A stretch of 64,000 bases of DNA from contig CM075995.1 of NCBI GenBank assembly GCA_038087875.1, positions 434,001 to 498,000 of the forward strand, in the 5' to 3' direction. The notes beneath the pieces were generated by a model. It had not been told where the DNA came from. It did no database searches and worked only from the letters and a program-made list of their open reading frames with translations. The stretch is from Malacoraja senta. Its lineage: Eukaryota. A program made the translations under genes and the position numbers. Shown piece by piece: positions 13,300-36,457 of this stretch. Position 1 is the stretch's first letter. The number at the start of each line of letters is the position of its first letter.

Positions 13300-14088
13300 C
13301 TTTAATAGCAGGATCAGTCCACCAGAGCAGAATAAGTAAGTGTTGAGAAATGCATCAGATCCACCAGGACACAGACAAGGATTTTGTTGGGAGGGAGGGG
13401 GGGGGGGGGGGAGGAGGAGAAAAAGGAAAATAAAGTTAATTTCCAGAACATTTATCACCGAAGATCATCAGACAAACATGTATTTTCATTTCAGATCCTT
13501 TTCACTGCGTACAGAAATAAAGCCTTTGCAATGAACATTATTGAATTTATTAAACATTCTTTGCGTTCTACTGGGATGAATACGATACGATATGATTACG
13601 ATATAACTTTATGCATCCCCGGAGGGAAATTGGGCTGCGGGGATGAATAAAGTTTAATCGTATCGTAATAATAGGCAAGAAACATCTTTTTAAAAGAAAG
13701 ACATCAGCAGCCACAAGTGTTAGACTTGCTGGTGATAATTGAGCTACAGCGACTCTCAATGTTTCAGGGGACACCTAGGCAGTAATTCTATCAAGAGAGA
13801 CCGATGGGTTGGTGATCTAGAAGAGAAGTTTAATTCCTCCTCCTCCCCACTCAAATCGGGCAGAAGGTACAAAGGCTTGATAGGGCATACCATCCGATTC
13901 GGGAACAGTTTTCATCTCTGTGTATGAAGGAACTGCAGATGCTGGTTTAAACCAACGTTAGACAAAAAATACTGGAGTAACTCAGCGGGTCAGGCAGCAT
14001 CTCTGCGGAGAAGGATTTGAAGAAGGGTCTCGACCCGAAACATCACCCATTCCTTCTCACCAGAGATGCTACCTGTCTTGCTGAGTAA

Positions 14089-14292
14089 AGGGCCTGGAAT
14101 CACAAAATCCTGGGGCACCGCACGTCACTGCCTACGTCACCATGCACCATGCACGCGTAATGCATGCCATGTGCACGTAATGCACGCCATGCGCACGTCA
14201 CGTGCTCGTCACGACGCAAGCGTCGTGCATCGTGACGCGTAAATGATGTTGCGTCAATGACACGCAAATGATGCCCAAGTGGGACAGGTCCT
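14089..14292. mobile_element. PIF/Harbinger-like MITE, family A (opposite orientation to 5632 copy, left TIR partly deleted)
   Basis: AGGGCCTG...CCCAAGTGGGACAGGTCCT; flanks TAA and TTA within host ctgagTTActcc. Confidence 0.72.
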
Positions 14293-15787
14293 TTACTCCA
14301 GCATTGTGTGTCTATCTACAGTTTGATCTCTGCTGTTTTCAAACTATTGAATAGTTCTCTCATAAACTATGGGTGTAATCCTGGTCTCCCAACCTACCTC
14401 ATTGCAGATCTTGCGCTTAAAAAAAAAATTGCACTTTCTCCACATCTGCAATGCTATAACTTTGAAACACTATATTCTGCACTCTGGTATATTTTCTCTT
14501 TGCACTAGCTGTTGTACTTGTGTTTGGTTTAATTGTACTTATGGTATGATTCGACTGCATAGCAAACAGATGAAGTTCTGGCTGTATCTCAGTGCACAGG
14601 CCAATAATAAACTAATGCCAATACATAGCAACAAATGAGCGAGAGATCAGTAAGTAGCAATCTTATGGATATCTCCATTTAAATACTTGCTTCGTAAAAA
14701 TAAGGTAATTTTGTTACCAAGTTAGTCCTCAAAATGCTACCCATAGCTCATATTAACAGTATAAACTTTAACGCTGAAATAAATATAAACACCGATGAGT
14801 AGGAAGGAGCTGCAGATGCAAGTTTACACTGAAAGTAGACACAAAGTGCTGAGGTAACTCAGCGGATCAGGGAGCATCTCTGGAGAGAAGGAACAGGTGA
14901 TGTTTCGGGTCGAGAAGAAGGGTCTTGACCCGAAACGTCACCCATTCCTTCTCTCCAGAGATGCTGCCTGTCCCGCTGAGTTACTCCAGCATTTAGTGTC
15001 TATAAACAGTAATGAATTGGGGACCAAAGATGATGCCACTTTATACAAATACTCAAGTTTCTGCTTTCCACCTACTCTCTTCCCTGTTGCACCATTTGAG
15101 CATGGGAATTTATCGGACTTTACTGGCTTTACCTTGCACCAAACGTTATTCCCTTATCATGAGTATATACACTGCAAATGGCTCGACTGTAATCATGTTT
15201 TGTCTTTCCGTTGAAGATAAGACACAAAATACTGGAGTAACTCAGAAGGTCAGGCAGCATCTCCGGAGAGAAGGAATGGATGACGTTTCAGGTCGAGACC
15301 CTTCTTCAGACTGTCTTTCTGCTGACTGATTAGCACGCAACAAAAGGCTTTTCACTGTACCTTGGTACACACTAAACTAAACTGAATTGAACTGAATTAA
15401 ATACCTAACATTACATGGTTTAGATTAATTGCAAGCCAAGTTGGAACTTGGGTACGATTCCACACTCATGAATAATTACCGCAAATGCCTTTCAGCTCAG
15501 TATTTGAGGCAATACTGATCCAGCCATTACATTTAGGTCTAGCACAAAAACACTTAGTGACTTCCTGCCGATAACAGGATGCAATAATGTACAAAGTGTA
15601 TCCTTTACATATTGTTTCCTGATTGAGATACCCTGCTAAATTTAAACCATCCACGGAATCCTTGAAGCAGTGTTTCGTCTCTTTAACTTCAAACAATCCT
15701 ATAGCTTAGTTTAGCTTAGAGACTCAGCATGGAAACAGGTCCTTCAGTACACCGGGTCCATGCTGGCCAGCGTTCCATGCACACTAA

Positions 15788-16097
15788 AGGGGCTGTCCCA
15801 CTGTACGAGGTAAGTCAAGAGCTCTCCCGAGTTTTTAAAAAAAAATCAAACTCGTGGTAAGTACGTAGAATGTACGCAGCGGGTACGTCGGAGCTCGGGG
15901 ACGTCTCTTAGCGGCTCGTAACGCTAACGACAGCTACTCGGGAAACGCGGTAAGCTCGTGAAGATTTTTCAACATGTTGAAAAATGTCCACGAGAGCCCC
16001 GAGTACCTACGAGCGGCTATTACCGTAATTCTCCGAGTTCGAATCGGGGGAAACTCGGGAGAACTCTTGAATTACCTCGTACAGTGGGACAGGCCCA
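15788..16097. mobile_element. PIF/Harbinger-like MITE, family B, inside a minus-strand HE1 SINE (about 15706-16330)
   Basis: TIR AGGGGCTGTCCCACTGTACGAGGTAA/TTACCTCGTACAGTGGGACAGGCCCA; perfect TAA TSD. Confidence 0.85.
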
Positions 16098-16570: not shown

Positions 16571-17412
16571 GACTTCGGAGCTTCTGAGGCTCCAGCCGCA
16601 GGCCCGTGGACGGTGACAGCGGGAGCTCGCGGGTCCCTGGTGGGAGACCGCTTTTCGGAGCTATCGCGGCGGAAGCTTCTCCCGCCCGAGTTGCGGGGTG
16701 GAGGGTGACCCGGAGTGGGGCCTGACATCGCCCGGCGAGGCTTTAACTGCCTCGCCGCCTGCCATCGCCCGCCGGGGGCTCCAACATCAGGACCCGGAGC
16801 AGGGCCTTACATCGCGGCGCGGCTTTAACAGCCGCGGGGACACCATCGCCCGCCGGGGGGCTATAACATCGGGAGAGCAGGGGAGTGACAAGACTTTGCC
16901 TTCCATCACAGTGAGGAGGAGATTCACTGTGATGGATGTCTGTGTGAATTGAGTTTGGTCGTGTGTCTTGTAAAATTGTTTCTTTTTGTTGTATGGCTGC
17001 AGAAACCAAAGTTCCTAACGGTAAAATAAAGTTCATTGTATTGTATTGTAAATAGTCAGATTTATTCGTCACATACACAGTAAAGTGCAGTGAAATGAAT
17101 TTGCCAGCAGCGGTACAGTAAAAAATGAACACACAATACACAATAAAAAATTTTAACACAAAACATCCACCACAGCATTCATCACTGTGGTGGAAGGCAC
17201 AAAGTACAGTCAGTCCTCCTCCATTTTCCCCCGTGGTCAGGACCATAAACCTCCGCAGTTGCCGCTGCGGGCGGCCAGATGTACAGGCAAGTCAAGTCCC
17301 GAATTGGTGCTTCCCTACCGGAGACCTACTTGAAGATGACGTAGGCCGCAGGCCGGCGGTCGGAGCTCTTCTCCAGGGATTCCCGGCAAGTGATCCTGCA
17401 TCCGGATGGTAA
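16571..17412. mobile_element. Two GC-rich SINE-like elements, tail to tail, inserted in a CR1 fragment
   Basis: CR1 LVRP|..LEYC is split at 16570/17413. The plus element ends aataaagttc(attgt)n at about 17050; the minus element ends gtgacgaataaatctgact at about 17054. Confidence 0.65.
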
Positions 17413-19289
17413 GTTGGAGTATTGCATGCAGTTCTGGTCCCAATAGGAATGATAGGAAGGATGTGGAGGCTTTGGAAAAGGTGCAACGGAGATTTACCAG
17501 AATGATGCCTGGATTAGGGGGGCATTAGCTACAGGGGGAGGTTGGCCGGACAGATCATTTTCTCTGAAACGCCGAATGTTGCGGGAGGAACTTGACTTCA
17601 AGATCCTTAACCTCACGGAATTATACCAGCCATGGTCCATAACTAAAGTGCAAAAAAACGTCACCAGGCGCAACTCTTCAATCATTTTCGCGACACTTGG
17701 TTCAACATCTGACTCATTGGGGTCTGATTCCTCAAAAGTCAAAAGCCAAGAGTGTTTTATTGTCACATGTCCTGAAATGGAACAAGAAATTCTTACTTGG
17801 GATAGACACAAAACGCTGGAGTAACTCGGCGCGACAGGCAGCATCTCTGGAGAGAAGGAATGGGTGACGTTTCGGGTCGAAGAAGGGTCTCGACCCGAAA
17901 CGTCACCCATTCCTTCTCTCCAGAGATACTGCCTGTCCCGCTGAGCTACTCCAGATTTTTGTGTCTATCTTCGGTTTAAACCGGAATCTGCAGTTCCTTG
18001 CTACAAAATTCTTGTGCAGAGGCTGTGCTATCTCTGACTCACCAAGGCCTCGAATTTCTTTTGATCCACTGTGAAAGATGCAGAAAGTCTGCCAATTTGC
18101 CAATTACCAAAGTCTCCAATGGTCTGAAGAAGGTATCCGACCCAAAATGTTGCCTGTCCATTCCCCCTTTAGTTACTGCCTGACTTGTTGGATTTATCCA
18201 ACACTCTGTATTTTGTTTAAGGTACCAGTATCTGTAGTCTCTTCTGTCTCCATTATCTGAAGCTTACTGTAAATCTAATATGGCCAAGATACTTCTGGTA
18301 AAAAATCTACAGCTAGAACTTAAAAAGAAAGCAATCCACAAAGTTGAAAGAAAGACAATAAAAAGGCTTCAGATAATGGGAGACGCGGTGGCGTAGCGCT
18401 AAAATACTGACTACGTAGCGCTAGTCCTGACTACAGGTGCTTATCTCGGGGGGTTTTGTACGTTCTCTCCGTGACCTGCGTGGGTTTTCTCTGAGATCTT
18501 CAGTTTCCTCTCACAGTCCAAAGACATACAGGTTTGTAGGTTAATTGGCTTGGTATAAATGTAAATTGTCCCTAGGGCATGTAGGGTAGCGTTAGTGTGC
18601 GGGGATCACTGGTCGGCGCGGATCTGTTTCCGCGCAGTATCTCTAAACTAAATAACAAGAATAATGAACACCAACTGATCTTGGAGCTGTATTTTTCAGA
18701 TTGCTTATTATTTTGATATTATCATTATGATTCTTTCCATAATTGTCACTGATTAAAATAAAACTAAGAAATTAAGTTTATGTGTTGCAAGTAGTCACAA
18801 TCACAGAGGAGGATCTTTCGTTTGCTACTTCATTCTTGTTTAATTAACGCCTTGAAAAATGTGAAGATAAATTAAAAAGTATATACACAAACAGTCTTGC
18901 TGCATTATCCCCTAATGAATATTGTAACAAAGATATTTTCATAGGAATTTTAAAATTGCTATAACTAGAGTAACCACCATTAAAAGATCACTGCATTGTT
19001 TTGCACCTCACAGAATTATAGCTGCCATGGTCTACAACTAAGGTGCAAAAAAAACTTCATAACACTCAATTCTTTAATCCTTTTATCTCACACATCCAAC
19101 CATCCAACTAAAAAAGATCAGAAGGGCAAAAAGGGGCCAGGAGATAGCTGTGGCGGGTAGCATTAAGGACAATCCCAAAAGATTTTATAAATACACTAGA
19201 CCAAGGGGGACCCGTTGGGTCCCATCCCCTCAACGCACGATTGCGGGGGGGGGGGCGGCCTGCGGCGTCACACACATACTCCCCACACA

Positions 19290-19830
19290 CACGGGGGGGG
19301 GAAGGGAGGGGGTTGGAGGGGGAGAGGGGGGCGAGGGGGGAGAGGGGAGGATGAGGGGAGGAGGGGAGAGGGGGAGAGGTAGGGGAGAGGGGGAGGGGGG
19401 AGGGGGGAGGGGGGCAGAGGGGGGGGAGGGAGAGGGAGAGAGAGGAGGGGGAGAGAGGGGGGGAGGGAGCGAAAGAGAAGAGGGGAGAGAGAGGAGAGGG
19501 AGAAAGGGGGGGGGGAGGGGAGAGAGGAGGGGGGAGAGTGTAGAGGGGAGAGAGGAGGGGGAGAGAGGAGGTAGAGAGGACGGGAGAGAGAACAGGAGGG
19601 AGGAGAGGGGAGGGGGGAGGGGGTAGAGGGGGGAGTAGAGGGGGGAGAGGAGGAGGGGGAGAGGAGGAGGGGGGAGAGGAGGAGGGGGAGAGGAACAGGG
19701 GGGAGAGGAGGAGGGGGAGAGGAGGAGGGGGGAGAGGGAGCAGGGGGGAGAGGAGGAGGGGGAGAGGAGGAGAGGGGGGGAAGAGGACGAGGGGGGGAGA
19801 GGAGGAGGGGGAAGAGGAGGAGGGGAGCCG
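19290..19830 (+). repeat. Polypurine (G/A) low-complexity tract in the outer Helitron
   Basis: About 540 bp almost entirely GGGGAGAGGA-type units; an (AG)n microsatellite lies at 20051-20117. Confidence 0.95.
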
Positions 19831-20049
19831 GGCGGGCAAGCGCGCTGTGAGCGAGCGGTCGACGATACTCGCAGCGCGTGAACACAACGTGCAGCCATTG
19901 TGACGTCATCAGCCAGCCGAATTGCCAAGTTATTTGTAGCTGTTGAACATTTTGATTATAACTGGAGAAATAATGCATGAATTTTTCAGATAAGGCGATG
20001 TTTGACTTCATGGGATAAATCTCTACAGGATATGTTAACATTTAACCAT

Positions 20050-20121
<72 letters not shown>

Positions 20122-20462
20122 ACACACACACACACACACAAAAGACCAGAGTTTTATAAGCATACTAGACTAAGTGGGACCCGTTGGGTCCCAGCATCAC
20201 ACGGGAGGGCTGGTCCCCCAACGCAATATTCCATCTCTCCACCGATTCCAATATGGTGGTGGTGGTGGTGGGGGTGGGGTTGGGGGTGGGGGGGGGGGCT
20301 TTCTGGAGTGCCACAATGGGTGTTGTGGGCTGAAGGGACTGGTTTCCTGAGGGCTAGTATGGACTCTGTGGGACGAATGGATTCTTGGGCTGGTGGCTCA
20401 GTCACTCAAGCCTGTTGTGCCTGACAGCTCACTCACTCACGGCTGGTGGGCTGGCAGTTGAC

Positions 20463-21199
20463 CAGGGCTCGAAATTAGAGGTTGCCCGGGTGCCACTGAC
20501 CACTCAAAGCGCCACCGAGTCATTTTGCCCGGCTTGGCAACCAGATACTGGTTTGTACCAAAGATAGACACAAAAAACTGGAGTAACTCCGCGGGTCAGG
20601 CAGCATCTCTGGAGAAAAGGAACGCAATGTTTTGTGTCGGCGGTGACGGCTGTATTGCGGGGCAAAGATACTAAGTGCGGGGTGAGGAAAGGTCGGAGCG
20701 AACGACAGGCCCCAAACAGCGGCAGCAGCGGCTCCATCTGCTCCTCCTCCCGCCCCTCGCCCGCCCTGATAAGGGCCTCTGCTTGAAAATCCGCTAATGG
20801 CGATAACCGCTTTCGAAACAAACCCTCCCGCACGCCGAGGCCGGGAGAAGGGAGGGAGGGGGAGGCCTCGGCGTGCGGGAGGGAGGGTTTGTTTTGAAAG
20901 CCCGTTAGCGGGTTTACAAGCAGAGGCCCTTATCAGGGCGGGCGGGGGGCGGGAGGAGGAGCAGATGGAGCCGCGGCCGCTGCTGCTGCCGCTGTGCGGG
21001 GCCCGTCATTCACTTCGACTCGTCTGAAGCAGCTGCACCAAAGATCTTATAGCTATAGGATCTCTGAGCTGCACCGTTCGGCCCCGCACCTTGCTGTTGG
21101 CTGGCGGAGGAGGGAGGCGGTGGCGAGGAGTTCCCAACGACCAAGGCAGCGGGGCGATGTTGTCCGAGGAGCGCTGATCTTCCTTCCTCCCCACCTCGC

Positions 21200-21239
<40 letters not shown>

Positions 21240-22742
21240 TCTCTTGTACGCCCCCTCCACCCCCTTATCCTGGGACCCCTCCACTCCATCCCGCACTGAT
21301 CCCCATTCCCGCGTCTATTCAGTCCTCACTGACATCCCCTGTGCTCCCCTCCACGTCTACCCCCCCCCCCCATCTATTCATCCTGCGCTGATCACCCTAT
21401 CCACCTCGCATTGATTCTCCTGCCACCCCCCCCCCCATCCATCCTACACTGGTTCTCCAATTCACCCTGTACTTACCCCTTTCCCATCCATCGTACTTAC
21501 CCCTTTCCCATCCATCCTGCACTTCTCCATCCATCCTGTACTGACCCCCCATCCATCCTGGACTAATCCACGCATTCATCCCGTACTGACCCACCCTCCA
21601 TTTACCCTGCACCTTCCCCCCTTCCCCTCATTCATCCTATAGTGATCCCCCATTCATCTGCACACCCTCCGATCCACACTGTACTGACCCCCCCCATTCA
21701 TCCTGCGCTGATCTCCCCCCCCCCATCCCTGTACTGATCCTCCCATTCAAGAAGAATGGGGGGAACAGTCTGAAGAAGGGTCTCGACCCGAAACGTTGCC
21801 TATTTCCTTCGCTCCATAGATGCTGTCTCACCCGCTGAGTTTCTCCAGCACTTTTGTCTACCCACATCCATCCCGTACTGACCCCCCCCATTCAACACCA
21901 CTGACATCCCCTGTGCTCTCCCCTCACAATTTTACCTACTCCATCCAACACGTACTAATTCACCTGCCTCAATCCATCCATTCTGCACCGACTGCCTTCT
22001 AATCCCCCACCCCCGCCATCTATCCACCCCGCACTGATTCACACACACCCCCCTCCCTGACCCTATTGTGCTGGAAATGTCTTCAGAGCGAACATTGACT
22101 ATGTTTGATAACGGAATGCAATCAAATGTGTTTTAATTCCCAATGTTATTATTTGTTTAAATCCATAAAGATGGATTAATTAAATTGGGAACACGTGAAA
22201 CATTAAAACCGCAGTGTTCGATTGTCACTGCTGCCGTTGACACGTTATTACAGAATTCATTTTAACGGCAAATCAATGCTCTTAATATGGAGTATCTGTA
22301 CTGTAGTTATTAATGAGCAACATTCACAACTATACGTACGCATATATGTTACCATGGTCCAGCATTTATTGACACAGGTTGATCATACGCTGAATGATCC
22401 AACCACATTTTTGTTTGGAAGTGGAAAGAACATAGAAATTGCATTCATTGCAATGTGTAAAAAGAGTTGAGATACTGTCTTATAATTTTGTTGCATGTCA
22501 TTATGGGATATATCATGTCTTGATTGGTGAATATGTTTAGTTTGTGACTTTATTTGAAGCAGAAATAATATGTGAATGCTTCATTGATTCCGACTGGTAA
22601 CTACGCACTTCGTCCGAGCACATTCTCGCACGCGTCATGCAAGCCATCTTAAATGACCACCCTAAACTGTCATTTGGCAACCTAAAAAGCTGCCTAGGTT
22701 GCCCGGCTGGCAACAGGGGAAAAAAGTTAAGCGAGAGCCCTG
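20463..22742. mobile_element. Non-autonomous hAT-like DNA transposon with 5-bp TSD
   Basis: Termini CAGGGCTCgaaaTTA and TAAgcgaGAGCCCTG; TSD TTGAC on both sides; subterminal GGCAAC/GTTGCC motifs at both ends. Confidence 0.72.
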
Positions 22743-22767
22743 TTGACTCACGGCTATTCCTTGAAAT

Positions 22768-23440
22768 TCCATTTCAAGCAGGGTGCAAGGCCACCAAATT
22801 CAAGTGCCGTTTCTTACCACTTCAAGCAGGGTGCAAGGCCAACAAATTCAAGTGCAGTTTCATACCATTTCAAGCAGGGTGCAAGGCCACTAAAGACAGC
22901 AAGTCCTGACCTCTCCCTTCTCCATTTTGCAGAGACTGAGCCCACACACTGAGCCCACAGAAACCCACACTTCTGGGTTTTATAGTCCCTCCCCCCTCCC
23001 ACCAGAAGGGGCGTGGCCTCATGTCGTGATGACAGGAGAGAGAATCTCAATATTTTTTAAACACTAATAACTCTTTTATTTTTCATCGATGGGAAAAATC
23101 TTCGGCACCTGATGAGCGGAGGTGCACTCTGAGTAAGATGGCCAAAAACCACAGCCGTACGTGGTAGCGCATTTTCTAAAATCAATATAAAGCTCAAACA
23201 GGAAGTGGTCAAGATTAGACTTTTAATTATATAGAAGGCAAGGCAGCTCTAATTAGGCAAGGCAGCTCTAATTAGGCAAGGCATCTCTAATTAGGCAAGG
23301 CAACTTTAATTAGGCAAGGCAACTTTAATTAGGCAAGGCAACTTTAATTTGGCAACACAGCTTTAGCATTTCCAAACCAAAGGCAACACAGCTTTAGCAT
23401 TTCCAAACCAAAGGCAACACAGCTTTAGCATTTCCAAACT
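22768..23440. repeat. Helitron-internal minisatellites
   Basis: 48-bp unit about 2.5 times (22768-22890); 19-bp aggcaaggcagctctaatt about 6 times (23236-23350); 31-bp ggcaacacagctttagcatttccaaaccaaa about 3 times (23351-23440). Confidence 0.9.
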
Positions 23441-24025
23441 ATATTTTCAAACCACATTAAGGGCACTGACAGGTCAGTAAAACCACTCAGTTTAGTAGAC
23501 ATGTGTTCAGTGTTATTCACAGCTCAGACTGAGAGACGTGACCCTCTCGCTCCCCCATCTTGCAGAGACTGACTGAGGCATTCAACACTTCCGGGTTTTA
23601 TAGTCCCTCCGGAAGGGGCGTGGCCTTCAGGAGAGAGAATCTCAACATTTTTTAAACACTAATAACTCTTTTATTTTTCATCGATGGGGAAAAATCCTCT
23701 TGTCCTGCGCAGCGGAGGGGGCTCTGAGTAAGATGGCCAAAAATCACAGCCATAAGTGGCAGCGTTTTTTTCTAAACTCAATATACAGAACAACAGGAAG
23801 TGGTCAAGATCAGACTTTTAGTAATATAGATATAGATAAGGGGGGAAAAATAACTGGAGAGAGAGTGGGACCTCTCACGAATCGAAGCGGTCACCTCTGT
23901 GTGGATTCACAGGAGATGGGCAAGGTCCTCAATGAGTATTTCTCCTTTGTATTTACCGAGGAGAAAGACAGTAGGATGGAGGAAATTGGAGCAGTCGCTG
24001 GAAGTGTTGAGAGCAGTCAGGGTTG

Positions 24026-24346
24026 AATCCCTGTCCCACGGTACGAGTTCATTCCAAGAGTTCTCCCGAGTTTGCCCTGATTCGAACTCGGAGATTTACG
24101 GTAATGGCCACTCGTCGGTACTCGGGGCTCTCGTGGACATTTTTCATCATGTTGAAAAATCTTCACGAGTCTTCCCGTGCTTACCTGCCCGTTATCGAAT
24201 CTTCCCGAGTACCTGCCGTTAGCGCTAAGAGATGTCCCCGAGCTCCGACATACCCGCTACGTTCATTCTCCGTGCTTAATACGAGTTTGATTTTTTTTAA
24301 ACTCGGGAGAGCTCTTGGAATGAACTCGTACCGTGAGACAGGGCTA
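24026..24346. mobile_element. PIF/Harbinger-like MITE, family B
   Basis: TIR ..CCCTGTCCCACGGTACGAGTTCATTCCAAGAG and its inverse; flanks TTG/TTA; near-identical to 62982-63312. Confidence 0.8.
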
Positions 24347-25535
24347 TTACCATCGAAGAAGTACTGAAGGTACTGTCGTGTATGAAGGTAGACAAATCTT
24401 CAGGGTTTGATCAGATATATCCGAGACATTGCGGGAAAATAAAGAGCAAATTGGTTGAAATTTATGCATCGTCCTTAGATACAGGAGAGGTGCCGGAAGA
24501 CTGGAGGGTGGCAAATGTTGTGCCTCTTTTCAAGAAAGGCTGCAGGGAAAATGCTAGTAACTATAGGCCGGTGAGTTTAACATCTGTAGTTGGTAAGTTA
24601 CTGGAGAGTATTCTGAGGGATAGGTTATACAGGCTTTTTGATGGGCAAGGGCTGATTAGGGACAGTCAGCATGGTATTGTACGTGGGAGGTCGTGTCTCA
24701 CAAATCTGAATGATTTTTTTGAAGACGTGACCAAAAAGGTTGATGAAGGCAGAGCTGTAGATGTTGTGTACATGGATTTCAGTAAGGCGTTCGACAAGGT
24801 TCCGCATGGTAGGCTGATCTGGAAGGCTAAATCGCATGGGATCCAAGGAGAGATAGCTGAATGGATAGCAAATTGGCTCCATGAAAGTAAGCAGAGGGTG
24901 ATGGTGGAAGGTTGCTTCTCGGACGCGAGGCCGGTGACTAGTGGTGGTGGCTCAGGGTTCGGTGCTGGGACCGTTACTGTTTGTCATCTACATCAATGAT
25001 TTGGATGAGAACATACAGGGCAAGATTAGCAAGTTTGCTGATGATACAAAAGTTAGTGGTTTTGCAGATAGTGAAGATAGTTGTGAAAGATTGCAGCAGG
25101 ATCTGGATCGATTGGCCAGGTGGACGGAGGAATGGTTGATGGAATTTAATACAGAGAAGTGCGAGGCGTTGCATTTTGGGACGTCGAACAAGGGCAGGAC
25201 CTACACAGTGAATGGTTGGCCTCTGGAGATTGATGTAGAGCAGAGGGATCTAGGAGTACACGTGCACAGTTCCTTGAAGGTCGAGTCGCAGGTAGATAAG
25301 GTGCACATGAAGGCTTTTGGCATTTTGGCCTTCATCAGTCAGAGTATTGAGTATAGAAGTTGGGAGGTCATGTTGCAGTTGTATAAGATGTTGTTGAGAC
25401 CGCATTTAGAATATTGTGTTAAGTTCTGGGCACCATGTTATAGGAAAGATATTGTCAAGCTTGAAATGGTTCAGAAAAGATTTACGAGGAAGTTGCCAGG
25501 ACTAGAGGGTGTGAGCTACAGGGAGAGGTTGAGTG

Positions 25536-26080
25536 ATAGACAATAGACAATAGGTGCAGGAGTAGGCTATTCGACCCTTTGAGCCAGCACCGCCATTCAA
25601 TGTGATCATGGCTGATCATCCCCAATCAGTACCCGTTCCTGCCTTCTCCCCATATCCCCAGATTCCGCTATCCTTAAGAGCCCTATCTAGCTCTCTCTTG
25701 AAAGCATCCAGAGAACCGCCCACTGAGGCAGGGAATTCCACAGACTCACCACTCTCTGTGAGAAAAAAGTGTTTCCTCGTCTCCGTTCTAAATGGCTTAC
25801 CACTTATTCTTAAACTGTGGCCCCTGGTTCTGGATTCCCCCAACATCGGGAACATGTTTCCTGCCTCTAGCGTGTCCAAACCCTTAACAATCTTATATGT
25901 TTCAATAAGATTCCCTCTCATCATTCTAAACTCCAGAGTGTACAAGCCCAGCCGCTCCATTCTATCAGCATATGACAGTCCCGCCATCCCGGGAATTAAC
26001 CTTGTAAACCTACGCTGCACTCCCTCAATAGCAAGAATGTCCTTCCTCAAATTAGGGGACTAAAACTGCACACCATACTC
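25536..26080 (-). mobile_element. CR1 3' fragment
   Basis: ORF 25616-26050; (ctattgt)n tail. Confidence 0.88.
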
Positions 26081-26540
26081 CATACGTGATAGGAGCAGAA
26101 TTAGGCCATTCAGCCCATCAAGTCTACTCCACCATTCAATCATGGCTGATCTATCTCTTCATCCTAACACCATTCTCCTGCCTTCTCCCCATAATCCCTG
26201 ACACGCGTACCAATTCAGCCTGAAGGAACCATGTTGCACTTATTCAAAGCTCCAACCTGCAGCCAATGTTTACACACCTATTAATCTCCTGCTTAGTAAC
26301 CAAAACCACAAATCTGAAATAGTCACAAAGTTCTGGAATAACTCAGTGGGTCAGGCAGCATCTCTGAAGAACGTGGATAGGTGACGTTTCAGACAACTAT
26401 CCACATTCTCAGTACATGTTTGGATCCGTTGAGTTACTCCGGCATTTTGTGTCTCATTCTTTGTTTTATGTTTTGTTTCGCTCAGTTTAGTTTGGAGATA
26501 CAGCGTGGAAACAAGCCCAAGTCCATGCCGACCAGCAACC

Positions 26541-26898
26541 AGATGGCGCAATGGGCTAAGTGTTTGGCTGGCAACCGGAAGGTAGCCGGTTCGAATCCCG
26601 CTTGGAGTGCATACTGTCGTTGTGTCCTTGGGCAAGACACTTCACCCACCTTTGCCTGCGTGTGAATGTGTGTGAATGTGTGTGAATGTGTGTGAGTGAT
26701 TGGTGGTGGTCGGAGGGGCCGTAGGCGCAGATTAGCAGCCACGCTTCCGTCAGTCTGCCCCAGGGCAGCTGTGGCTACAGAAGTAGCTCACCACCACCGA
26801 GTGTGACTGAGGAGTGAATGAATAATGCGATGTAAAGCGCCTTGAGTATTAGAAAGGCGCTATATAAATCCCATCCATCATTATTATTATTATTATTA
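26541..26898 (+). mobile_element. tRNA-derived CORE-SINE with L2-type tail (AFC-SINE-like), nested in an HE1 SINE
   Basis: A box TGGCGCAATGG 26544-26554, B box GGTTCGAATCCC 26588-26599, CORE-like gtgtccttgggcaagacacttcaccc, tail tgtaaagcgccttgag..gaaaggcgctatataaat(tta)n. Confidence 0.85.
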
Positions 26899-27585
26899 CA
26901 TTAGTTCTATCCTGCACATCAAGGACAATTTGCCAATTAGCCCACAAGCCTGAACATCTTTGGAATGTGAGAGGACACCCACGCTGTCACAGTGAGGACG
27001 TACAAACTCCACACAGACAGCACCCGTCGCCAGGATCAAACCCGACTCCCTGGTGCTGTTAGGCAGCAACTCTGCCGCCGCGCCGCCCGTTGTTAACCAA
27101 CATCTGCAGTTTGTCGTGTCTATAATCTAAAATTTGTCATTGACTGTTTAAATGTCTCCACTGTCTAACTTTCCCATCAGTGTTACATCCTACAACCCCA
27201 AACAAACTTTGGATATCCACCAGTCCAGGCCTCCCTCTTCCCAAAGTTCTATACCATCGGCGGATTTGCCCAAAGCAATCCCAGCCCAATCCCTTCCTCT
27301 TTAACACCTTCCTGTTTGACCACACATTAACATGTTCCGTATGTTTGGGTCATGGCCAATAGTGAGGAAAAAAAAACCTGGCAGTGAACAGGTTAACAAT
27401 TCCCCTTATTTCTTCTTTGGCTTGGTATCAATCTTTTATCAGCTGACGACTTTTTCTTGATTCGTGCTTCTGTGAAGCTCCCTGGGACTCTTTCCCCTGT
27501 TCAAAGGTTTATATGTTGTTGGAGTTCATTCCAGTTTCACTGCAGGCAGTCGTTACTTAAAATAGTTCTGTGAAGTGGTGACCAA

Positions 27586-27905
27586 GGGCGGCATGGTGGC
27601 GCAGCTGGTAGAGCCGCTGCCTCACGGTGCCGGAGACCCGGGTTCGATCCCGACCTTGGGTACTGTCTGTGTGGAGACATGGTCTCCCTGTGACTACGTG
27701 GGTTTCCTCTGAGTGTCCAGTTTCCTCCTACATCTCAAAAACATGTGGTTTTGTAGCTTGATTGGCCTCTGTACAACAATTGCTCCCTGTGTGTAGGGAG
27801 TGGACTCAAATGTGAGATAACATGGAACAAGTGTGAATCGGTGATCGATGGTCGGCGTGGACTCAGTGGGCCAAAGGGCCTGTTTCTGTGCTGTATCCCT
27901 TTATG
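27586..27905 (+). mobile_element. HE1-type V-SINE
   Basis: Full head gggcggcatggtggcgcagctggtagagcc, B box, tail ggcctgtttctgtgctgtatc. Confidence 0.85.
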
Positions 27906-28255
27906 AAAAAAATCACAATGATCCATTCTACATTTTATTTGATCTCCATTCCCTTTGCCCCGTTTCACACCTTCACACTTCCTTATCTATCTATGTCCCT
28001 CCCCCCTGACGTCAGTCTAAAGAAGGGTCTCGACCCAAAACGTTACCCATTCCTTCTCTCCAGAGATGCAGCCTGTCCCGCTGAGTTACTCCAGCATTTT
28101 GTGTCTATCTTTGGTTTAAACCGGCATCTGCTGCTGCTCCATACACCATAATGTCTTTCATGTTTTATGGGTTGATTCAATCTTTCAATCAATTGAAGCA
28201 ATCAGTAAAACTTTATTATTTTATCTTGAAGCTGCAAAGATCCTACAAGCATGCG

Positions 28256-28907
28256 GAATGTTGGCCTTCATAACAAGAGGATTTCAGTATAGGAGTAGAG
28301 AGGTTCTTCTGCAGTTGTATAGGGCTCTGGCGAGACCACATCTGGAGCATTGCGTACAGTTTTGGTCTCTTAATGTGAGGAAGGACATCCTTGTGATTGA
28401 GGCAGTGCAGCGTAGGTTCACGAGGTTGATCCCTGGGATGGAGGGATTGTCATATGAGGAAAGATTGAAAAGACTAGGCTTGTATGCACTGGAGTTTAGA
28501 AGGATGAGGGGGGAACTTATAGAATAATATAAAATTATAAAAGGACTGGACAAGCTAGATGCAGGAAAAATGTTCCCAATGTTGGGTGAGTCCAGAACCA
28601 GGGGTCACAGTCTTAGAATAAAGGGGAGGCCATTTAAGACTGAGGTGAGAAAAAAAAATTTCACCCAGAGAGTTGTGAATTTGTGGAATTCCCTGCCACA
28701 GAGGGCAGTGGAGGCCAAATCACTGGATGGATTTAAGAGAGAGTTAGATAGAGCTCTAGGGACTAGTGGAATCAAGGGATATGGGGAGAAGGCTGGCACG
28801 GGTTATTGATTGGGAACGATCAGCCATGATCACAATGAATGGCAGTGCTGGCTCGAAGGGCCGAATGGCCTCCTCCTGCACCTATTTTCTATGTTTCTAT
28901 GTTTCTA
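28256..28907 (+). mobile_element. CR1 3' fragment
   Basis: ORFs 28258-28527 and 28570-28809; (ctatgttt)n tail. Confidence 0.9.
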
Positions 28908-30566
28908 TTATCCCCCAAAGTCTGTTGATCCTTCTTCCTTGTTATTTATGATGTTATCCTATCCCTGCTTCAAACTTATATATAAGGTACACAAAAATGC
29001 TGGAGAAACTCAGCGGGTGCAGCAGCATCTATGGAGCATATATTAGAACTTATATATAGTTGACTATTTTGAATCACCTGCAAATAATCAATCATGCAAC
29101 TCAAATTGCTATTGTTCTAAGTTCCTTGTCCAGTTGAATGTTGGCTTGTGCAAGGCTGGAAAGAATGTAGAGAAGATTAACGGGAATGTTGCCAGCACTC
29201 AACGGCCTGAGTTATAGGGAAAGGTTGGGCAGGCTAGGAGTTTATTCCTTGTAGTGCAGGAGGCTGAGGGGTGATCTTACAGAGGTGTACAAAATCATGA
29301 GGGGAATTCATAGGGTGAATGCTCTTGCCCGGAGTAGGGGGAATCGAGAACCAGACGACAGAGGTTTAAGGTGAGGGGGGAAGGATTTACTAATAAACTC
29401 GTGGGGCAATATTTTCACACAGAGGGTGGTGGATATGTAGAACATGCTACCAGAAGAGGTAAGACAATAGACAATAGGTGCAGGAGTAGGCCATTCGGCC
29501 CTTCGAGCCAGCACCGCCATTCAATGTGATCATGGTTGATCAGCCCCAATCAGTACCCCATTCCTGCCTTCGTTGAGGCAGGTACTATAATAGCGTTAAA
29601 AAACCTTTGGACAGGTACGTGGATAGGCAATGTTTAGCGAGATATGTGCCAAAGGCAGGCTAATGGGACGAGCTTAGATGGGGCATCTTAGTTGGTAGGG
29701 ACAATTGGGCTGAAGGGCCTGTTGAGTATGTCTCAAGTCTCAAACAAGTTTGAAACCATTTTGTTATTCAATATATTTTTAAAAAAAATACAAAGCTTGG
29801 CCCCAGCCAGAGCATGGTCAGAAGGAACTGAATTAAGAAAATTTCACATGAGATCAACTTTAACAAAGAAATCCTTTACAGCCTCCAAATAAAACTAAAA
29901 GACTGCACCCATGACTCCAAAAGAAATAAAAGGAATTTTACACACAAGATACCACTACTGTGGCCAAAGTACTCCTTGGTGTTACTTTAAACTTAACTAC
30001 TGCGTCTCTGCTATATTCTGGGCGTTTGCAGATAGTCATAGACATAGAGTGATGCAGTGTGGAAACAGGCCATTCGGCCCAACTTGCCCACACTGGCCAA
30101 CATGTCCCAGTTACACTAGTCCCACCTGCCTGCGCTTGGTCCATATCCCTCCAAACCTGTCCTATCCATGTACCTGTCTGTTTCTTAAACGTTGGGATAG
30201 TCCCAGCCTCAACTACCTCATCTGGCAGCTTGTTCCATGCACCCTTTTAGTGAAAATCTTGTGAGATGGGTCCAAGAATATAAAGAGGGCAAGAACCATT
30301 GCCCTTGAGGCACTGCACTTAACTGCTAACATCAGGCTTGACCTTATGACAGAACACTCAGTTCTATTTCTAGACACCTATGCATTACTACTGAGCACCA
30401 AGAGCCAACAGTGAGTGGGTGAGGAGGAGCACTGAGCTGATGGGAGTCGGGATCATGTAACTATTTTTAAACAGGTTTTCTCAGCTTCATTCCAGAACAC
30501 TGAGAACCAGAGATAAACCCCGTTGATAAACGGAACTTCTCACTAAAAACAAACCCTGGGAACTAA

Positions 30567-31019
30567 AGGGCCTGTCCCACTTGGCCGTCATTTGCACCTC
30601 ATTTACGCGTCATATGTAAAATAGGTCGATGTGTCGTGATGCGCTACGTCGCACGCAAATCACGCGTCAGCACAGCCGTCTGGTGCGTGTGACGTCATTA
30701 GAATATCCTGCGGCGTGCGGCAGGACCTTGATGCAAGGACATTGACGTAACCATGCGTCAGCACGCGATACACGTGAGACGTCGTGATGCCAGCGTACGA
30801 CGCCAATGCGTCAGCGTGCGTACCCAATGCGTCAGCGTGCATACGCGATACGTCATGCAGGTGGCGCGCGTGGATTTCGTTCCTGTACTAAAACCTGGAG
30901 CGCCGCGCGATACGATTCCACGCCTCACCATGCACAGCGTTTGCGCACCCCACGCATCGACCTAATTTACATATAACGCGTAAATGAGGCGCAAATGACG
31001 GCCAAGTGGGACAGGCCCT
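30567..31019. mobile_element. PIF/Harbinger-like MITE, family A, with long TIRs
   Basis: TIR AGGGCCTGTCCCACTTGGCCGTCATTTGCACCTCATTTACGCGT..., about 55 bp and near-perfect; flanks TAA and TTA. Confidence 0.85.
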
Positions 31020-31700
31020 TTACTGCAGGATTTTACACACTATTCAACGAAATTAAGGTTAAACATTAAAAATTGGCCTGCAGTCAGAAGAATTCCCATC
31101 AATTATGTGTGGCGGCCTACAAACTCATGGGCGGTAGAGTTGCTGCCTTACAGCGCCAGAGACCCGGGTTCGATCCTGACTACGGGTGCTGTCTGTCCCG
31201 AGTTTGTACGTTCTCCCAGTGACCTGCGTGGGTTTTCTCCGGGATCTCTGGTTTCCTTCCACACTCCAAAGACGTACATGTTTGTAGGTAAATTGGCTCG
31301 GTAGAATTTTAAATTGTCCCTCGTGTGTGTAGGGCGGCGCGGACTCGGTGGGCCGAAGGGCCTGTTTCCGCGCTGCATTTCCAAACTAAGCAATACTAAG
31401 CTACAGTAAAAAGCTGACCCAAGTAAATCATTGGCTTGGTATTCAAATTAATAATTGACCAGATATTAAGATAATTACAATATTTTAATTGTTACACTCT
31501 CACACAGATTTTACTTCCATTCCATAAAAATTACAAAAGATTATTCCTATAATTCATTCTTAAACATGATTATTCTTACGTTTAGACTCCGCAAGGCAAA
31601 ATAATTTCTATCCCACCATAACCCATGACAACATCTAGTTGCTCCTTCAAATTAATCCAATCTACCCTGAATTTTCCAATTCCAACTCTAGTTATCCTCT

Positions 31701-31990
31701 GTAGACAAAAAAGCTGGAGAAACTCAGCGGGTGAGGCAGCATCTATGGAGCGAAGGAAATAGACAACGTTTCAGGCCGAAACCCTTCTTCAGACTGCCCA
31801 AGCGAAATATGAGGTGCTGTTCCTCCAATTTACGGTGGTCCTCACTCTGGCCATGGAGGAGGCCCAGGACAGAAAGGTCGGATTCGGAATGGGAGGGGGA
31901 GTTGAAGTGCTGAGCCACCGGGAGATCAGGTTGGTGATTGCGAACCGAGCGGAGGTGTTCGGCGAAACGATCGCCAAGCCTACGCTTGGT
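31701..31990 (-). mobile_element. Penelope-like 3' fragment with internal deletion
   Basis: GIY-YIG tail peptide QHFNSPSHSESDL joined directly to the terminal module; perfect 15-bp TSD ctctagttatcctct (31686-31700, 31991-32005). Confidence 0.88.
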
Positions 31991-32164
31991 CTCTAGTTAT
32001 CCTCTTTCTGTTTAGTTCTCTTCAATGTGGAAAAACTACCATTTTACGTTTTTCCAAAACTATCTTGAACCCACAATCACAAGCTTGTTGCCCTGAATTT
32101 ATCATTCTGTTTTTTGTCTGGAACAGGTAAATAACAATGATCAAAATGCTGCTTTGTAGGAAAT

Positions 32165-33600
32165 TGAGTTTAGAAGATTGAGGGGGGATCTTATAGAAAC
32201 TTACAAAATTCTTAAGGGGTTGGACAGGCTAGATGCAGGAAGATTGTTCCCGATGTTGGGGAAGTCCAGGACAAGGGCTCACAGCTTAAGGATAGAGGGG
32301 AAATCCTTTAGGACCGAGATGAGAACAACTTTTTTCACACAGAGAGTGGTGAATCTCTGGAACTCTCTGCCACAGAAGGTAGTTAAGGTCAGTTCATTGG
32401 CTATATTTAAGAGGGAGTTAGATGTGGTCCTTGTGGCTAAAGGGATCAGGGGGTATGGAGAGAAGGCAGGGATGGGATACTGAGTTGGATGATCAGCCAT
32501 GATCATATTGAATGGCGGTGCAGGCTCGAAGGGCCGAATGGCCTACTCCTGCACCTATTTTCTATGTTTCTATGAGTTTGGTGCGAGGATTTGGTGCGAG
32601 GATTTGCTGTAGTTCTTGATTTTGCAACATACTTATTGCCACAAGCATGTCCGAAGGCTCTAAAAATGGTCCTAATTTCATTATTATTGTTTGCCCTCAC
32701 TGGGACAGGCACGTGGCAAGGGATCCACATTGACCTGTCTCTCCTCATAAAACCACGTTGGCGCTGAGGTAGAATTGCTGCTTTACAGCACCTGAGACCC
32801 GGGTTCGATCCTGACTACGGGTGCATGTCTGCACGGAGTGTGTGCTCCCTGTGACCTGTGTGGGTTTTCTCCGGGTGCTCCAGTTTCCTCCCACACTCCT
32901 AAGACCACAGATTTGTAGATTAATTGGCTTGGTAAAAATTGTAAATTGTCCCAGTGTGTGTAGAATAATGTTAGCATGTGGGGATCGCTAGTCAGCGCAC
33001 ACTCAGTGGGCTGAACGGCCTGTTTCTGCGCTCTATCTCTAACTAAACTAAACTCTGACCGGGAGAGATAGATCAGCCATGATTGAATGGCGGAGTAGAC
33101 TTGATGGGTCGAATGACCTAATTCTACTCCTATCAATAGACAATAGGTGCCATTCAATGAGATCAAGGCTGATCATTCACAATCAGTACCCCGTTCCTGC
33201 CTTCTCTCCATATCCCTTAACCCCGCTATCCTTAAGAGCTCCATCTAACTCTCTCTTGAAAGCATCCAGAGAACCAGCCCCCACTGCCCTCCGAGGCAGA
33301 GAATTCCACACACTCACAACTCTCTGTGTGAAAAAGTTTTTCCTCATCTCCGTTCTAAATGGCTTTCCACTTATTCTTAAACTGTGCCCCCTGGTTCTGG
33401 ACTCCCTCAACATCGGGAACATGTTTCCTGCCTCTAGCATGTCCAAGCCCTTAATAATCTTATATGTTTCAATAAGATCCCCTTTCATCCTAAATTCCAG
33501 AGTGTACAAGTCCAGCCGCTCCATTCTCTCAACATATGACAGTCCCGCCATCCTGGGAATTAACCTCGTGAACATACGCTGCACTCCCTCAATAGCAAGA
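32165..33600. mobile_element. Cluster: CR1 (+, 32165-32574), HE1 SINE (+, 32755-33053), CR1 (-, 33135-33600)
   Basis: ORFs 32178-32483 and 33183-33584; SINE boxes and V-domain. Confidence 0.85.
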
Positions 33601-35039
33601 ACTTATGAAGTTATAGTGGACAATTCGCAATAATTGCCTACTATAACCATTCTTGATTAGTAAGGGTGTCAGGGGTTATGGGGGCAAGGCAGAGTTACAG
33701 TTACAGTTTAGTTTACAGTTTAGTTTATTGTCAAGTGTACTGAGGTACATTGAAAAGCTTTTGGTACGTGCTAAACAGTCAGCAGAAAGGCACGAGAATA
33801 GGGAAGAGAGGGAAAGATAGATCAGACATGATTGAATGGCGGAGTAGACTTGATGGGTCGAATGGCCAAATTCTGCTCCGATCATTTATGAACTTATAAT
33901 GGACACCATCCCTCCTTTATAACAAGGGTTTACTGTATTACCCAATATTAGTGGAAAAATAGCCCAGACCCTCATACAACCAAGGTAGACCGGTTTAGTT
34001 GGGGTTTGTTGCGTTTAAGAGCCTGATAATTGTTGGAAAGAAACTGTTCCTGAACCTGGACATCATAGATACATAGATACATAGAAAATAGGTGCAGGAG
34101 TAGGCCATTCGGCCCTTCGAGCCTGCACCGCCATTCAATATGATCATGGCTGATCATCCAACTCAGTACCCTGTACCTGCCTTCTCTCCATACCCCCTGA
34201 TCCCTTTAGCCACAAGGGCCACATCTAACTCCCTCTTAAATATAGCCAATGAACTGGCCTCAACTACCCTCTCATGGTTTTCAGACTCTTATATCTTCTT
34301 CCCTATGGCAGGAGTGAACTGAGAGGGTTGTCCATAAGTTTATAAGTTCTAGGGGCCGAATTAGGTCATTTGGCCAGTCATGTCTGCTCCGCCATTCAAT
34401 CATGGCTGATCTATCTCTCCCTCTCAACCTCATTCTCCTGTCTTCTTCTCATAACCCCTGACACCCTCACTAATCAAGAATCTGTCAATCTCTGCTTTCA
34501 AAATATCCAGCCGTCTTTGGCAATGAATTCCACTGATTCACCACCCTCAGGCTAAAGAAATTCCTCCTCATCTCCGTTCTAAAAGAACGTCCATTATTCC
34601 TGAGGCTATGGCCTCCAGTCCTAGACTTTCCAACTAATGGAAACATCCTCTCCACATCCACTCTACCCAAGCCTTTCACTATTCTGTACGTTTCAATGAG
34701 GCCCCCCCCCCTCATTCTTCTAAACTCCAGCGAGTACAGGCCCAGTGCCGACAAACGCTCATCATAGGTTAACCTACTCATTCTTGAGATCATTCTGGTA
34801 GACCTCCTCTGGACCCTCTCCATCCTTCCTCACGATATGGTGCCCAAAACAGTCAGGGTGATGCGGGGCATTGATGATGCCGGTTGCCACTTTGAGACAG
34901 CGCCTTCTATAGATCCCTTCGATGGTGGGGAGCTCACTGCCGGTGATGGGGACAGCCTCCACCACTTTTGCTAATCTCCTTCGTTCCCAAGTGACATTCG
35001 AGTTGCCCATCCTATTCATTTTATTTACGCGCCACAATG

Positions 35040-36457
35040 TTTAGGCTGGTCCTTACCCTCAACAACGTTTCCTTCGACTCCTCCCATTTCCTCCAAATAC
35101 AAGGCGTTGCTATGGGCACGCGCATGGGCCCCAGCTATGCCTGCCTCTTTGTAGGGTACGTCTAACAATCCTTGTTCGAGGTGTACCGTGGCCCTATCCC
35201 CGAACTCTACCTCCGCTACATCGACGACTGCATTGGTGCTACCTCCTGCACCCATGCAGAACTCAGTGACTTCCATCCGGCACTCAAATTCACCTGGACC
35301 ATTTCCGACATCTCCCTACCGTTTCTAGACCTCGCCATCTCCGTCGCAGGTGACAGACTACTGACCAACATCTACTACAAACCCACTGACTCCCATGGCT
35401 ATCTGGACTACACTTCTTCCCACCCTGCCTCCTGTAAGGACTCCAACCCCTACTCCCAATTCCTCCGTCTACGCCGCATCTACACCCAGGATGAGGTGTT
35501 CCAAACCAGGGCACCGGAGATGTCCTCATTCTTCAGGGAACGGGGATTTCCCTCTTCCACTATAGATGAGGCTCTCACCAGGGTCTCTTCTACACCCCGT
35601 AGCTCTGCTCTCACTCCCCATCCCCCTACTCGTAACAAGGGCAGAGTCCCCCTTGTCCTCACCTTCCACCCTAACAGCCATCGCATACAACATATAATCC
35701 ACCAACATTTTTGCCACCTCCAACGGGATCCCACCACTGGCCACATCTTCCCATCTCCCCCCCCTGTCTGCTTTCCGCAGAGACCATTCCCTCCGTAACT
35801 CCCTGGTCAATTCGTCCCTTCCCACCCAAACCATCCCCTCCCCGGTACTTTCCCCTGCAACCGCAGGAAATGCTACACTTGTCGCTTTACCTCCCCCCTC
35901 GACTCCATCCAAGGACCCAAGCAGTCTTTCCAGGTGAGGCAGAGGTTCACTTGCAACTCCTCCAACCTCATCTATTGCATGCGCTGTTCTAGGTGTCAAC
36001 TGCTCTACATCGGTGAGACCAAGCGCAGGCTTGGCGATCGCTTCGCCCAACACCTCCGCTCAGTTCGCAATAACAAACCTGATCTCCCGGTGGGTCAGCA
36101 CTTCAACTCCCCCTCCCATTCCGAATCCGACCTTTCTGTCCTGGGCCTCCTCCATGGCCACAGTGAGGTCCACCGCAAATTTGAGGAGCAGCACCTCATA
36201 TTTCGCTTGGGTAGTTTACACCCCAGCGGTATGAACATTGACTTCTCCAATTTCAGGTAGTCCTTGCTTTCTCCCACCTTCCCCTCCCCTTCCAAGCTCT
36301 CCCACAGCCTACGGTCTCCGCCTCTTCCTTTCTTCTTCCCTCCCCCACCCCCACGACATCAGTCTGAAGAAGGGTCTCGACCCTAAACGTCACCTATTCT
36401 TTCGCTCCATAGATGCTGCCTCACCCGCTGAGATTCTCCAGCTTTTTAGTCTACCTA
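35040..36457 (+). mobile_element. 5'-truncated Penelope-like retroelement (RT plus GIY-YIG endonuclease), inactivated
   Basis: QGVAMGTRMGPSYA, in-frame TAA, LRYIDD, YYKPTD; GIY-YIG region NLIYCMRCSRCQLLYIGETKRRLGDRFAQH ending TAG 36260; pyrimidine-rich UTR then the ctgaagaagggtctcgaccc terminal module. Confidence 0.93.

Follow-up and report, generated by a model that had tools for sequence, protein, structure and literature searches.

The 4,641-bp insert at positions 19196–23836 of the window (the whole 64-kb stretch of DNA that was analysed) comprises, in the reading that we favour at a probability of roughly 0.6, two non-autonomous canonical Helitrons with unrelated bodies and near-identical 3′ ends. 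Both are on the minus strand in a head-to-tail arrangement, and the inner one would be nested six bases inside the 5′ end of the outer one. The Helitron-type ends, the insertion between A and T without duplication and the five-layer order of the nest, all put forward in an earlier sequence-only reading, are supported.

Helitron ends within a LINE

The host sequence and the outer element comprise the following features:

19078..19195, plus strand: CR1-type LINE ORF2 fragment left of the insert, ending in the target A (blastx to RT-family homologues, alignment end at 19194)
19196..20164, minus strand: main part of the outer non-autonomous Helitron, including its 3′ end; 969 bp, or 975 bp if 23831–23836 are counted; recognized by its 3′ signature, the 5′-end motif at 20142–20164 and no coding match
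19196..19223, minus strand: outer 3′ terminus, consisting of a hairpin with a 7-bp stem, 11 nt and CTAG, followed by the host T (terminal motif search, junction reading)
19293..19825, no strand: G/A-rich low-complexity tract within the outer element (repeat scan)
20051..20141, no strand: (AG)33 and (CA)n microsatellites adjoining the outer 5′ end (repeat scan)
20142..20164, minus strand: outer 5′-end remnant, its first two bases TC missing when in register with the sibling ends (5′-end comparison)
23831..23836, minus strand: six non-LINE bases, TCTATA, a presumed displaced outer tip or duplicated inner tip
23837..25540, plus strand: CR1-type LINE ORF2 right of the insert, beginning with the target T and containing the RT domain (Pfam RVT_1, collinear homologues)
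24029..24343, no strand: separate inverted-repeat MITE, also interrupting the LINE (arms of 62 nt, 84%)

The right-hand part of the LINE, which we take to be CR1 rather than another LINE clade, its homologues carrying no names, yielded two Pfam RVT_1 matches (E 1.2e-16 and 5.9e-12). In blastx alignments to RT-family homologues, both flanks were collinear and were contiguous to within 1 nt in 50 of the 55 homologues scored. The insert separates an A at 19195 from a T at 23837, and the host junction revealed no direct repeat of 2–12 bp, which indicates that the target was not duplicated. These data bear out the earlier claim that CR1 ORF2 is split at an AT site without target-site duplication. 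The rejoined LINE frame is short by 1 nt, in a G/A run ∼10 nt to the right of the junction. The MITE further to the right has three additional copies in the window, at 76–91%.

Two 3′ ends of the type CTAG plus GGGACCC/GGGTCCC hairpin were found on the minus strand, at 19196–19223 and 20165–20192. In both, a 7-bp stem with a 3-nt loop is positioned 11 nt from the end; this pattern was matched twice in the window and never in 100 shuffles. The two signatures had been described as identical, which is correct for the hairpin, the 11-nt spacing and the CTAG, but 2 of their 28 bases differ. The hairpin at 19196 is part of the minimum-energy DNA fold; that at 20165 is outcompeted by a longer rival stem in the fold of a 62-nt fragment. 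At the opposite ends, a 5′ TC is present at 23830, 23836 and 23235, and the outer element starts with TC only if the six bases 23831–23836 are counted as its own. A rolling-circle concatemer of one element was rejected, as the outer and inner bodies have only their last 29 nt in common. No further copy of either Helitron was detected in the window by the 3′-end and 5′-motif patterns or by self-comparison, and the terminal motifs gave 0 matches each in viral contigs, metagenome contigs and prokaryote genomes. The three matches of the 5′-motif pattern are circular, since it was derived from the three known ends.

We scanned 39 of the 50 internal frames of at least 50 aa against Pfam. These frames contained no Rep or helicase match and no coding remnant above the cut-offs, including a transposase in the TIR element described below. 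Matches to Atrophin-1 (on a microsatellite) and TnpW (10 residues) were both below the cut-off and were rejected. Rfam searches of 17000–37000 returned six miRNA-type matches below gathering scores, none of them within the nest. From what is known of the family, both elements would have been mobilised in trans, the RepHel transposase being supplied by a gene at another location.

Six bases between the inner element and the LINE

The sequence confirms the original description of the right end, of the six extra bases and of the middle junction. Judged from the junction alignment with 50 of the 55 homologues, the six bases are foreign to the LINE, and they are identical to those with which the inner element begins. 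Their origin as LINE sequence or as a target duplication was rejected by the homologue alignment and the repeat check. We infer that they belong to the outer element because all four junctions are then canonical and no base is lost. A 975-bp outer element would first have inserted at the AT site of CR1 ORF2, and the inner element would then have entered the AT site between positions 6 and 7 of the outer element, six bases of which would now lie on its far side.

Entry of the inner element at a point six bases inside the outer 5′ end is the simplest reading and explains every base with canonical junctions, as had been proposed, but it disagrees with the spacing seen in related ends: the restored outer 5′ end has 15 nt before AAAA versus 11 in both sibling ends. 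This longer spacer, together with the fact that the outer remnant without the six bases is exactly TC short of the sibling-end register, argues against nesting at the level of the sequence, as does the hexamer itself, which local duplication may equally explain. Also counted against nesting, no solo outer copy was present among the window, viral, metagenome and prokaryote sequences searched, and no RepHel gene was found or linked to the elements. The register of the remnant and the hexamer favour an abutting tandem, in which the inner element would have landed right at the edge of an outer element that lacks, or has lost, its TC and the six bases would be a duplicated inner tip, arising as a family trait or by slippage. 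Except for two absent bases, the remnant keeps the register of the sibling ends, the hexamer equals the inner start, and a Helitron 5′ end against the 3′ end of another is reported for bats in the available part of PMC4778049. We nevertheless consider such a tandem unlikely, if still a serious contender, because it calls for two independent irregularities, duplication of 6 bp and absence of the TC, whereas the nest requires just a 4-nt longer TA-rich spacer. Moreover, the hexamer is not doubled at the internal sibling end, 23235.

The probably composite inner element and its contents

The inner element comprises the following features:

20165..23830, minus strand: inner non-autonomous Helitron, TC...CTAG, 3,666 bp; 1,381 bp minus the TIR element and its duplication (ends, junctions, read coverage)
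20165..20192, minus strand: inner 3′ terminus with the same hairpin, 11 nt and CTAG, followed by the T of the outer element (terminal motif search)
20463..22742, no strand: non-coding TIR DNA transposon (hAT5-like) with a perfect 8-bp TIR (5-bp duplication TTGAC at 20458–20462 and 22743–22747)
20542..20639, minus strand: Penelope-type 3′ module fragment in the TIR element (many window copies, very high read depth)
20692..21019, no strand: long imperfect palindrome in the TIR element, arms of 84 nt, 92% (inverted-repeat comparison)
21039..21066, no strand: 28-bp palindromic mini insertion with an 8-bp duplication, in the TIR element (sequence reading)
21766..21866, plus strand: Penelope-type 3′ module fragment in the TIR element (89% to 36360–36459)
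22769..22889, no strand: 48-bp tandem repeat, 2.5 copies (repeat scan)
22910..23235, minus strand: second, internal 5′ module, beginning with TC and preceded by T, not A (76.5% to 23543–23830; junction bridged in other copies)
23236..23439, no strand: tandem repeats of 19 bp (6.3 copies) and 31 bp (2.9 copies) that separate the 5′ modules (repeat scan)
23543..23830, minus strand: terminal 5′ module (sequence comparison, 5′-end motif)

The junctions of the inner element are A/TC and CTAG/T. A third 5′-end motif, missed in the first reading, is located at 23235, where the 76.5% copy of the terminal 5′ module begins; this internal 5′ end follows a T within a tandem array. Read-derived contigs were obtained from 4 of 21 sequencing runs, representing four organisms, with 20118–24030 as the query stretch (20118–20151 was skipped as repeat in one run). 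Contigs of the Penelope modules dominated this output, with 7,933 loose ends and 2,110 joints beyond those listed; the listed rows did not reach the termini at 20164, 23830 and 23836 and so weigh neither for nor against the nest. All 30 bins of the inner element were covered in all four runs, and the element is multi-copy in each. The junction at the internal 5′ module was bridged by at least three contigs from two runs, which indicates that it is common to other copies. In one run, a joint connecting 22797 with 23543 may represent a single-module form or a misplacement between the 76% modules and was left out of account. Having a pair of 5′ modules but a single 3′ end, the inner family is probably itself composite, which bypass of a 3′ end would predict.

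This raises the question of where the nest was built. It could have been assembled at another locus, the whole 4.64-kb unit, from the outermost 5′ tip to the outermost 3′ end, moving into the LINE once with the inner terminator bypassed; the anatomy would be the same and only the history different. [quoted passage not shown] We regard it as rather improbable, given that the internal 3′ end here has an intact hairpin and CTAG, whereas maize multi-terminus elements had lost the CTAG at 99 of 100 internal 3′ ends, according to the available text (PMC3288121). That no contig among those listed spans the 20164/20165 junction weighs lightly against it.

The TIR element is enclosed by an exact 5-bp duplication, outside its perfect 8-bp TIR. 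Among the contigs listed, one departs from the sequence at 22743 and another connects to it at 22742, and an empty form connecting 20456 with 22742 was seen in 17, 22, 34 and 33 contigs of the four runs. The skipped length of 2,285 matches the element plus its duplication (2,280 + 5). Many copies of the inner element in the four organisms are without the TIR element, which is itself multi-copy in all four runs. An 8-bp target duplication is usual for hAT transposons; here it would need one mismatch and a right TIR shorter by 3 nt. The element earlier called hAT-like is present, but with a duplication of 5 bp. Its short TIR, CAG...CTG ends and 5-bp duplication are shared with hAT5 transposons. 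In the available part of PMC12730594, hAT5 is defined by a 5-bp duplication, and CA..TG ends with 2–5 bp duplications are noted in the CMCT clade. As this copy has no transposase, its assignment to a superfamily is tentative.

Both Penelope-module fragments noted earlier in the TIR element were recovered by window comparison. An ORF with a GIY-YIG match (E 1e-4) precedes, by ∼100 nt, the sequence at 36360–36459, to which the second is related; the ORF upstream of that ORF has no Pfam match, and Rfam gave no hammerhead match at E 0.1 in 17000–37000. The Penelope fragments probably arrived with the TIR family.

Target choice and relation to known Helitrons

The suggestion that the family prefers its own AT-rich termini is not needed here: there is one case, and its site fits the published preference for AT-rich targets. 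The insertion-site context in the outer element is 80% A+T, tied second among its 29 AT sites, and four of these (14%) fall in its first 14 nt. Helraiser uses an AT target in an A+T-rich 20-bp context and bypasses 3′ ends, as described in part of PMC4778049. Site choice would need only this known AT preference in A+T-rich DNA, the TA-rich tip being among the best targets of an otherwise A+T-poor outer element.

Targeting of the family's own 5′ termini would require RepHel to recognise the left end of an element already in place and to nick within the opening bases of that end, so that elements pile up in head-to-tail order. The shared orientation, the near-identical 3′ ends, entry within 6 nt of a terminus and the second 5′ module of the inner family are in line with this, and maize Helitrons are said, with reference to earlier work, to favour sites near or inside other Helitrons (PMC3288121, in part). 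We consider it very unlikely. The single case was found by selection; given a nest, 14% of AT sites are already in the first 14 nt; and the nick is neither at the terminal A/TC nor in the 11-nt register expected from end recognition. The internal 5′ end at 23235 follows a T in a tandem array, not a tip, the outer element itself entered a LINE and not a Helitron, and, in the portion of the report available, 701 Helraiser events were not clustered around their donor sites (PMC4778049). Self-targeting cannot be shown from one locus. It is very unlikely that a vertebrate group of Helitrons, abundant and apparently undescribed, enters the TA-rich 5′ tips of its relatives time and again, stacking TC-starting tips into composites with several 5′ and 3′ ends and growing by self-targeting, not by chance nesting. 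If true genome-wide, self-targeting would provide a path from nesting to multi-terminus elements that can be counted, and a means of approaching RepHel target choice.

The locus is an ordinary mobile-DNA pile-up of the kind described in maize and bats; the families themselves are new. No paper that deals with the structure of Helitrons in skates or rays emerged from our literature search; for the whale shark, Helitrons are only listed. With the HelibatN subfamilies and Helraiser (PMC4778049, in part), the elements have in common a 5′ TC, a CTAG 3′ end, a subterminal hairpin, A/T insertion without duplication and an A+T-rich target; abutting 5′/3′ insertions and 3′ bypass are seen in bats, whereas terminal sequence and host differ here, and the frames scanned revealed no autonomous partner. 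As described in sections of PMC4224331, compound HelibatN539 combines, like the inner element, one copy's 5′ end and a second copy's 3′ end with intervening DNA, but it captured a host gene, whereas the inner element captured short tandem repeats. Multiple 5′ and 3′ ends per unit, with nesting proposed as their source, are likewise reported for maize in the available text of PMC3288121, where multiple termini occur in 28.7% of helA elements; most internal 3′ ends in maize carry damage, whereas the one here is intact, and the gene fragments captured by maize Helitrons have no counterpart in the elements here.

Taken together, the locus provides a clean vertebrate example of probable Helitron nesting and composite formation. 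It also presents two or three repeat families for a curated library to separate: the outer Helitron, the inner Helitron with its double 5′ end, and the TIR element with a 5-bp duplication and Penelope fragments.

Termini of the two Helitrons and the split LINE

The two non-autonomous Helitrons lie head to tail on the minus strand, the outer element at 19196-20164 and the inner element at 20165-23830, within the ORF2 of a LINE that we take to belong to the CR1 clade; the homologue matches themselves are nameless. Their 3' ends carry the following signatures:

19196-19223, minus strand: 3' signature of the outer Helitron, hairpin and CTAG
20165-20192, minus strand: 3' signature of the inner Helitron, hairpin and CTAG

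Each comprises a 7-bp stem, a 3-nt loop and 11 nt to the CTAG end, followed by T. At up to 3 mismatches these were the only 2 matches in the whole window (0 in 100 shuffles), and the terminal motifs had no match in four scans, one of viral contigs, two of metagenome contigs and one of prokaryote genomes. The sequence-only reading had called the signatures identical, which is true of the hairpin; over the whole signature 2 of 28 bases differ. The two bodies share no similarity outside the last 29 nt (blastn).

In silico excision of 19196-23836 restored A|T without a direct repeat of 2-12 bp. Of 150 LINE homologues, 65 matched both flanks, the right one reaching the RT domain, and 55 were kept after filtering (E < 1 on each side, gap < 40 residues). 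The flanks were 1 nt short of contiguous in 50 of these and showed other offsets in 5; the 1-nt deficit fits a G/A run directly to the right of the junction. The proposed split at A|T without a target-site duplication is thus borne out. Counted as LINE, the six bases 23831-23836 (TCTATA on the minus strand) would give a 5-nt surplus over the homologue spacing, and we therefore assigned them to the insert, with no target duplication.

An inverted-repeat MITE (24029-24343) breaks the same LINE 190 bp to the right of the Helitron nest; its family has four copies in the window (76-91% identity), the others at 62979-63317, 15793-16093 and 43082-43369. On the left, an 80-bp direct repeat (19005-19084 and 17610-17688, 80% identity, 1.4 kb between) adjoins the LINE fragment.

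Origin of the six bases

We consider it probable (about 0.6) that the inner Helitron inserted into the 5' tip of the outer element, in which case the six bases would be the displaced outer tip. The order would then be host A, the TC start, the inner TC...CTAG between A and T, the outer CTAG and host T; all four junctions are canonical under this assignment, with zero bases lost. The outer end so restored lies 15 nt ahead of the AAAA motif, versus 11 nt in both sibling ends, which speaks against nesting. The rival is an abutting tandem in which the six bases are a duplicated inner tip next to an outer end without TC. Also against nesting, the outer remnant alone (20142-20164), aligned in register with the siblings, is short of exactly TC, and the hexamer has the same letters as the first six bases of the inner Helitron. 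An abutting tandem nevertheless requires two anomalies, whereas the nested insertion requires only one, and we regard the tandem as unlikely.

Composition of the inner Helitron and its copies

Three related 5' motifs lie at 23830, 23235 and 20164. The one at 23235, absent from the sequence-only reading, opens a module of 326 bp whose identity with the terminal module (23543-23830) is 76.5%; it is preceded by T, not A, and adjoined by a 19-bp tandem array. Among the listed contigs, three from 2 runs span this junction with at least 31 letters on each side, and two more leave the alignment 6 nt into the 19-bp array. Because contigs bridge the junction, the double 5' end is a trait of the inner family, or at least of part of it. 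3' bypass is described as yielding two 5' ends and one 3' end (PMC4778049, PMC4224331); we infer that the double 5' end arose in this way. Within 22910-23830, 19-bp and 31-bp tandem arrays separate the two 76%-identical modules, and a joint 22797>23543 in one run may represent a single-module variant.

Sampled 31-mers from 19830-24400 were contained at a share of 0.38-0.52 in 20 of 21 listed runs (7 coded organisms, 9 studies), which corresponds, roughly and with all parts pooled, to a 2-3% difference from the nearest copies. Contigs of 4 runs from 4 organisms were mapped to 20118-24030, with the outer body outside this stretch; all 30 bins were covered in all four runs, and contig depth, which is no copy number, was mostly higher over the Helitron parts than over most of the interior of the TIR element. 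This non-coding DNA transposon and the Penelope-type fragments within it are as follows:

20463-22742: TIR element with perfect 8-bp TIR and 5-bp duplication
20542-20639: Penelope-type module fragment inside the TIR element, a very abundant short module
21766-21866: Penelope-type module fragment inside the TIR element, a very abundant short module

A TIR-free form (joint 20456>22742) was present in all four runs (17, 22, 34 and 33 contigs), so the TIR element is a true later insertion. The skip of 2,285 equals 2,280 + 5; an 8-bp duplication gives an equal skip but needs one mismatch and a clipped TIR, and two single contigs set the edge at 22742/22743. hAT families usually have 8-bp duplications, those with 5 bp being called hAT5 in a part of PMC12730594. 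For this copy, which has no transposase, 'hAT5-like' is a lead only.

Fragment 21766-21866 is 89% identical to 36360-36459, which lies after an ORF with a weak GIY-YIG match, in line with a Penelope derivation of the module. Its right edge is spanned by two contigs, aligned over their full length and drawn from two runs, which reach 25 and 30 letters into the Penelope side (slightly below the 31-letter bar); this suggests that the fragment moves with the TIR family and is no insertion of its own here. The five layers proposed earlier would then form a genealogy and need not be five separate events at this locus.

The segment 35166-36459, a broken RT-like ORF and a GIY-YIG ORF followed by the short module, is likely a Penelope copy of the parent type for this module, which has >20 copies in the window. 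Inverted pairs of modules form long hairpins at 17833-17935 (Rfam miRNA matches, all sub-threshold), 14837-15001 and 13960-14106. Inside the TIR element, 21031-21074, a near-perfect 28-bp palindrome between 8-bp duplications, is a minimal TIR-only insertion, and an imperfect 328-bp palindrome at 20692-21019 (best arms 84 nt, 92%) may be a further MITE.

Target choice and known Helitron nests

The suggested preference of the family for its own AT-rich termini is not needed for this single case. The restored outer element (975 bp) holds 29 AT sites, and its first 14 nt contain 4 of these, so that a hit in the tip, given a nest, is expected about one time in seven without A+T weighting. The used site has 80% A+T across 20 bp, which makes it joint second among the 29; of all 4,400 AT sites in the window, it ranks within the top 9%. 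Helraiser, according to PMC4778049, targets AT with a strong bias to A+T-rich DNA within ~20 bp. The nick missed the terminal A|TC and was also out of the register predicted for end recognition. Self-targeting is therefore not required, though with only one case it may still occur.

Multiple termini are frequent in maize Helitrons (28.7% of helA elements), with nesting proposed as the source, and these elements reportedly land close to or within one another (PMC3288121); in bats, insertions that place one 5' end against another's 3' end are on record (PMC4778049), and head-to-tail junctions and tandem arrays occur in plants and bats (PMC5876387, PMC11934779). For cartilaginous fish, our literature search found only a whale shark listing (PMC8455134); the main text of the little skate paper leaves Helitrons unmentioned (PMC10115646), and the passages covered of a review on vertebrates list no Helitrons from this group (PMC5381603). 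The Helitron and TIR families of the nest may already be in repeat catalogues. The nest is real, well resolved and ordinary.
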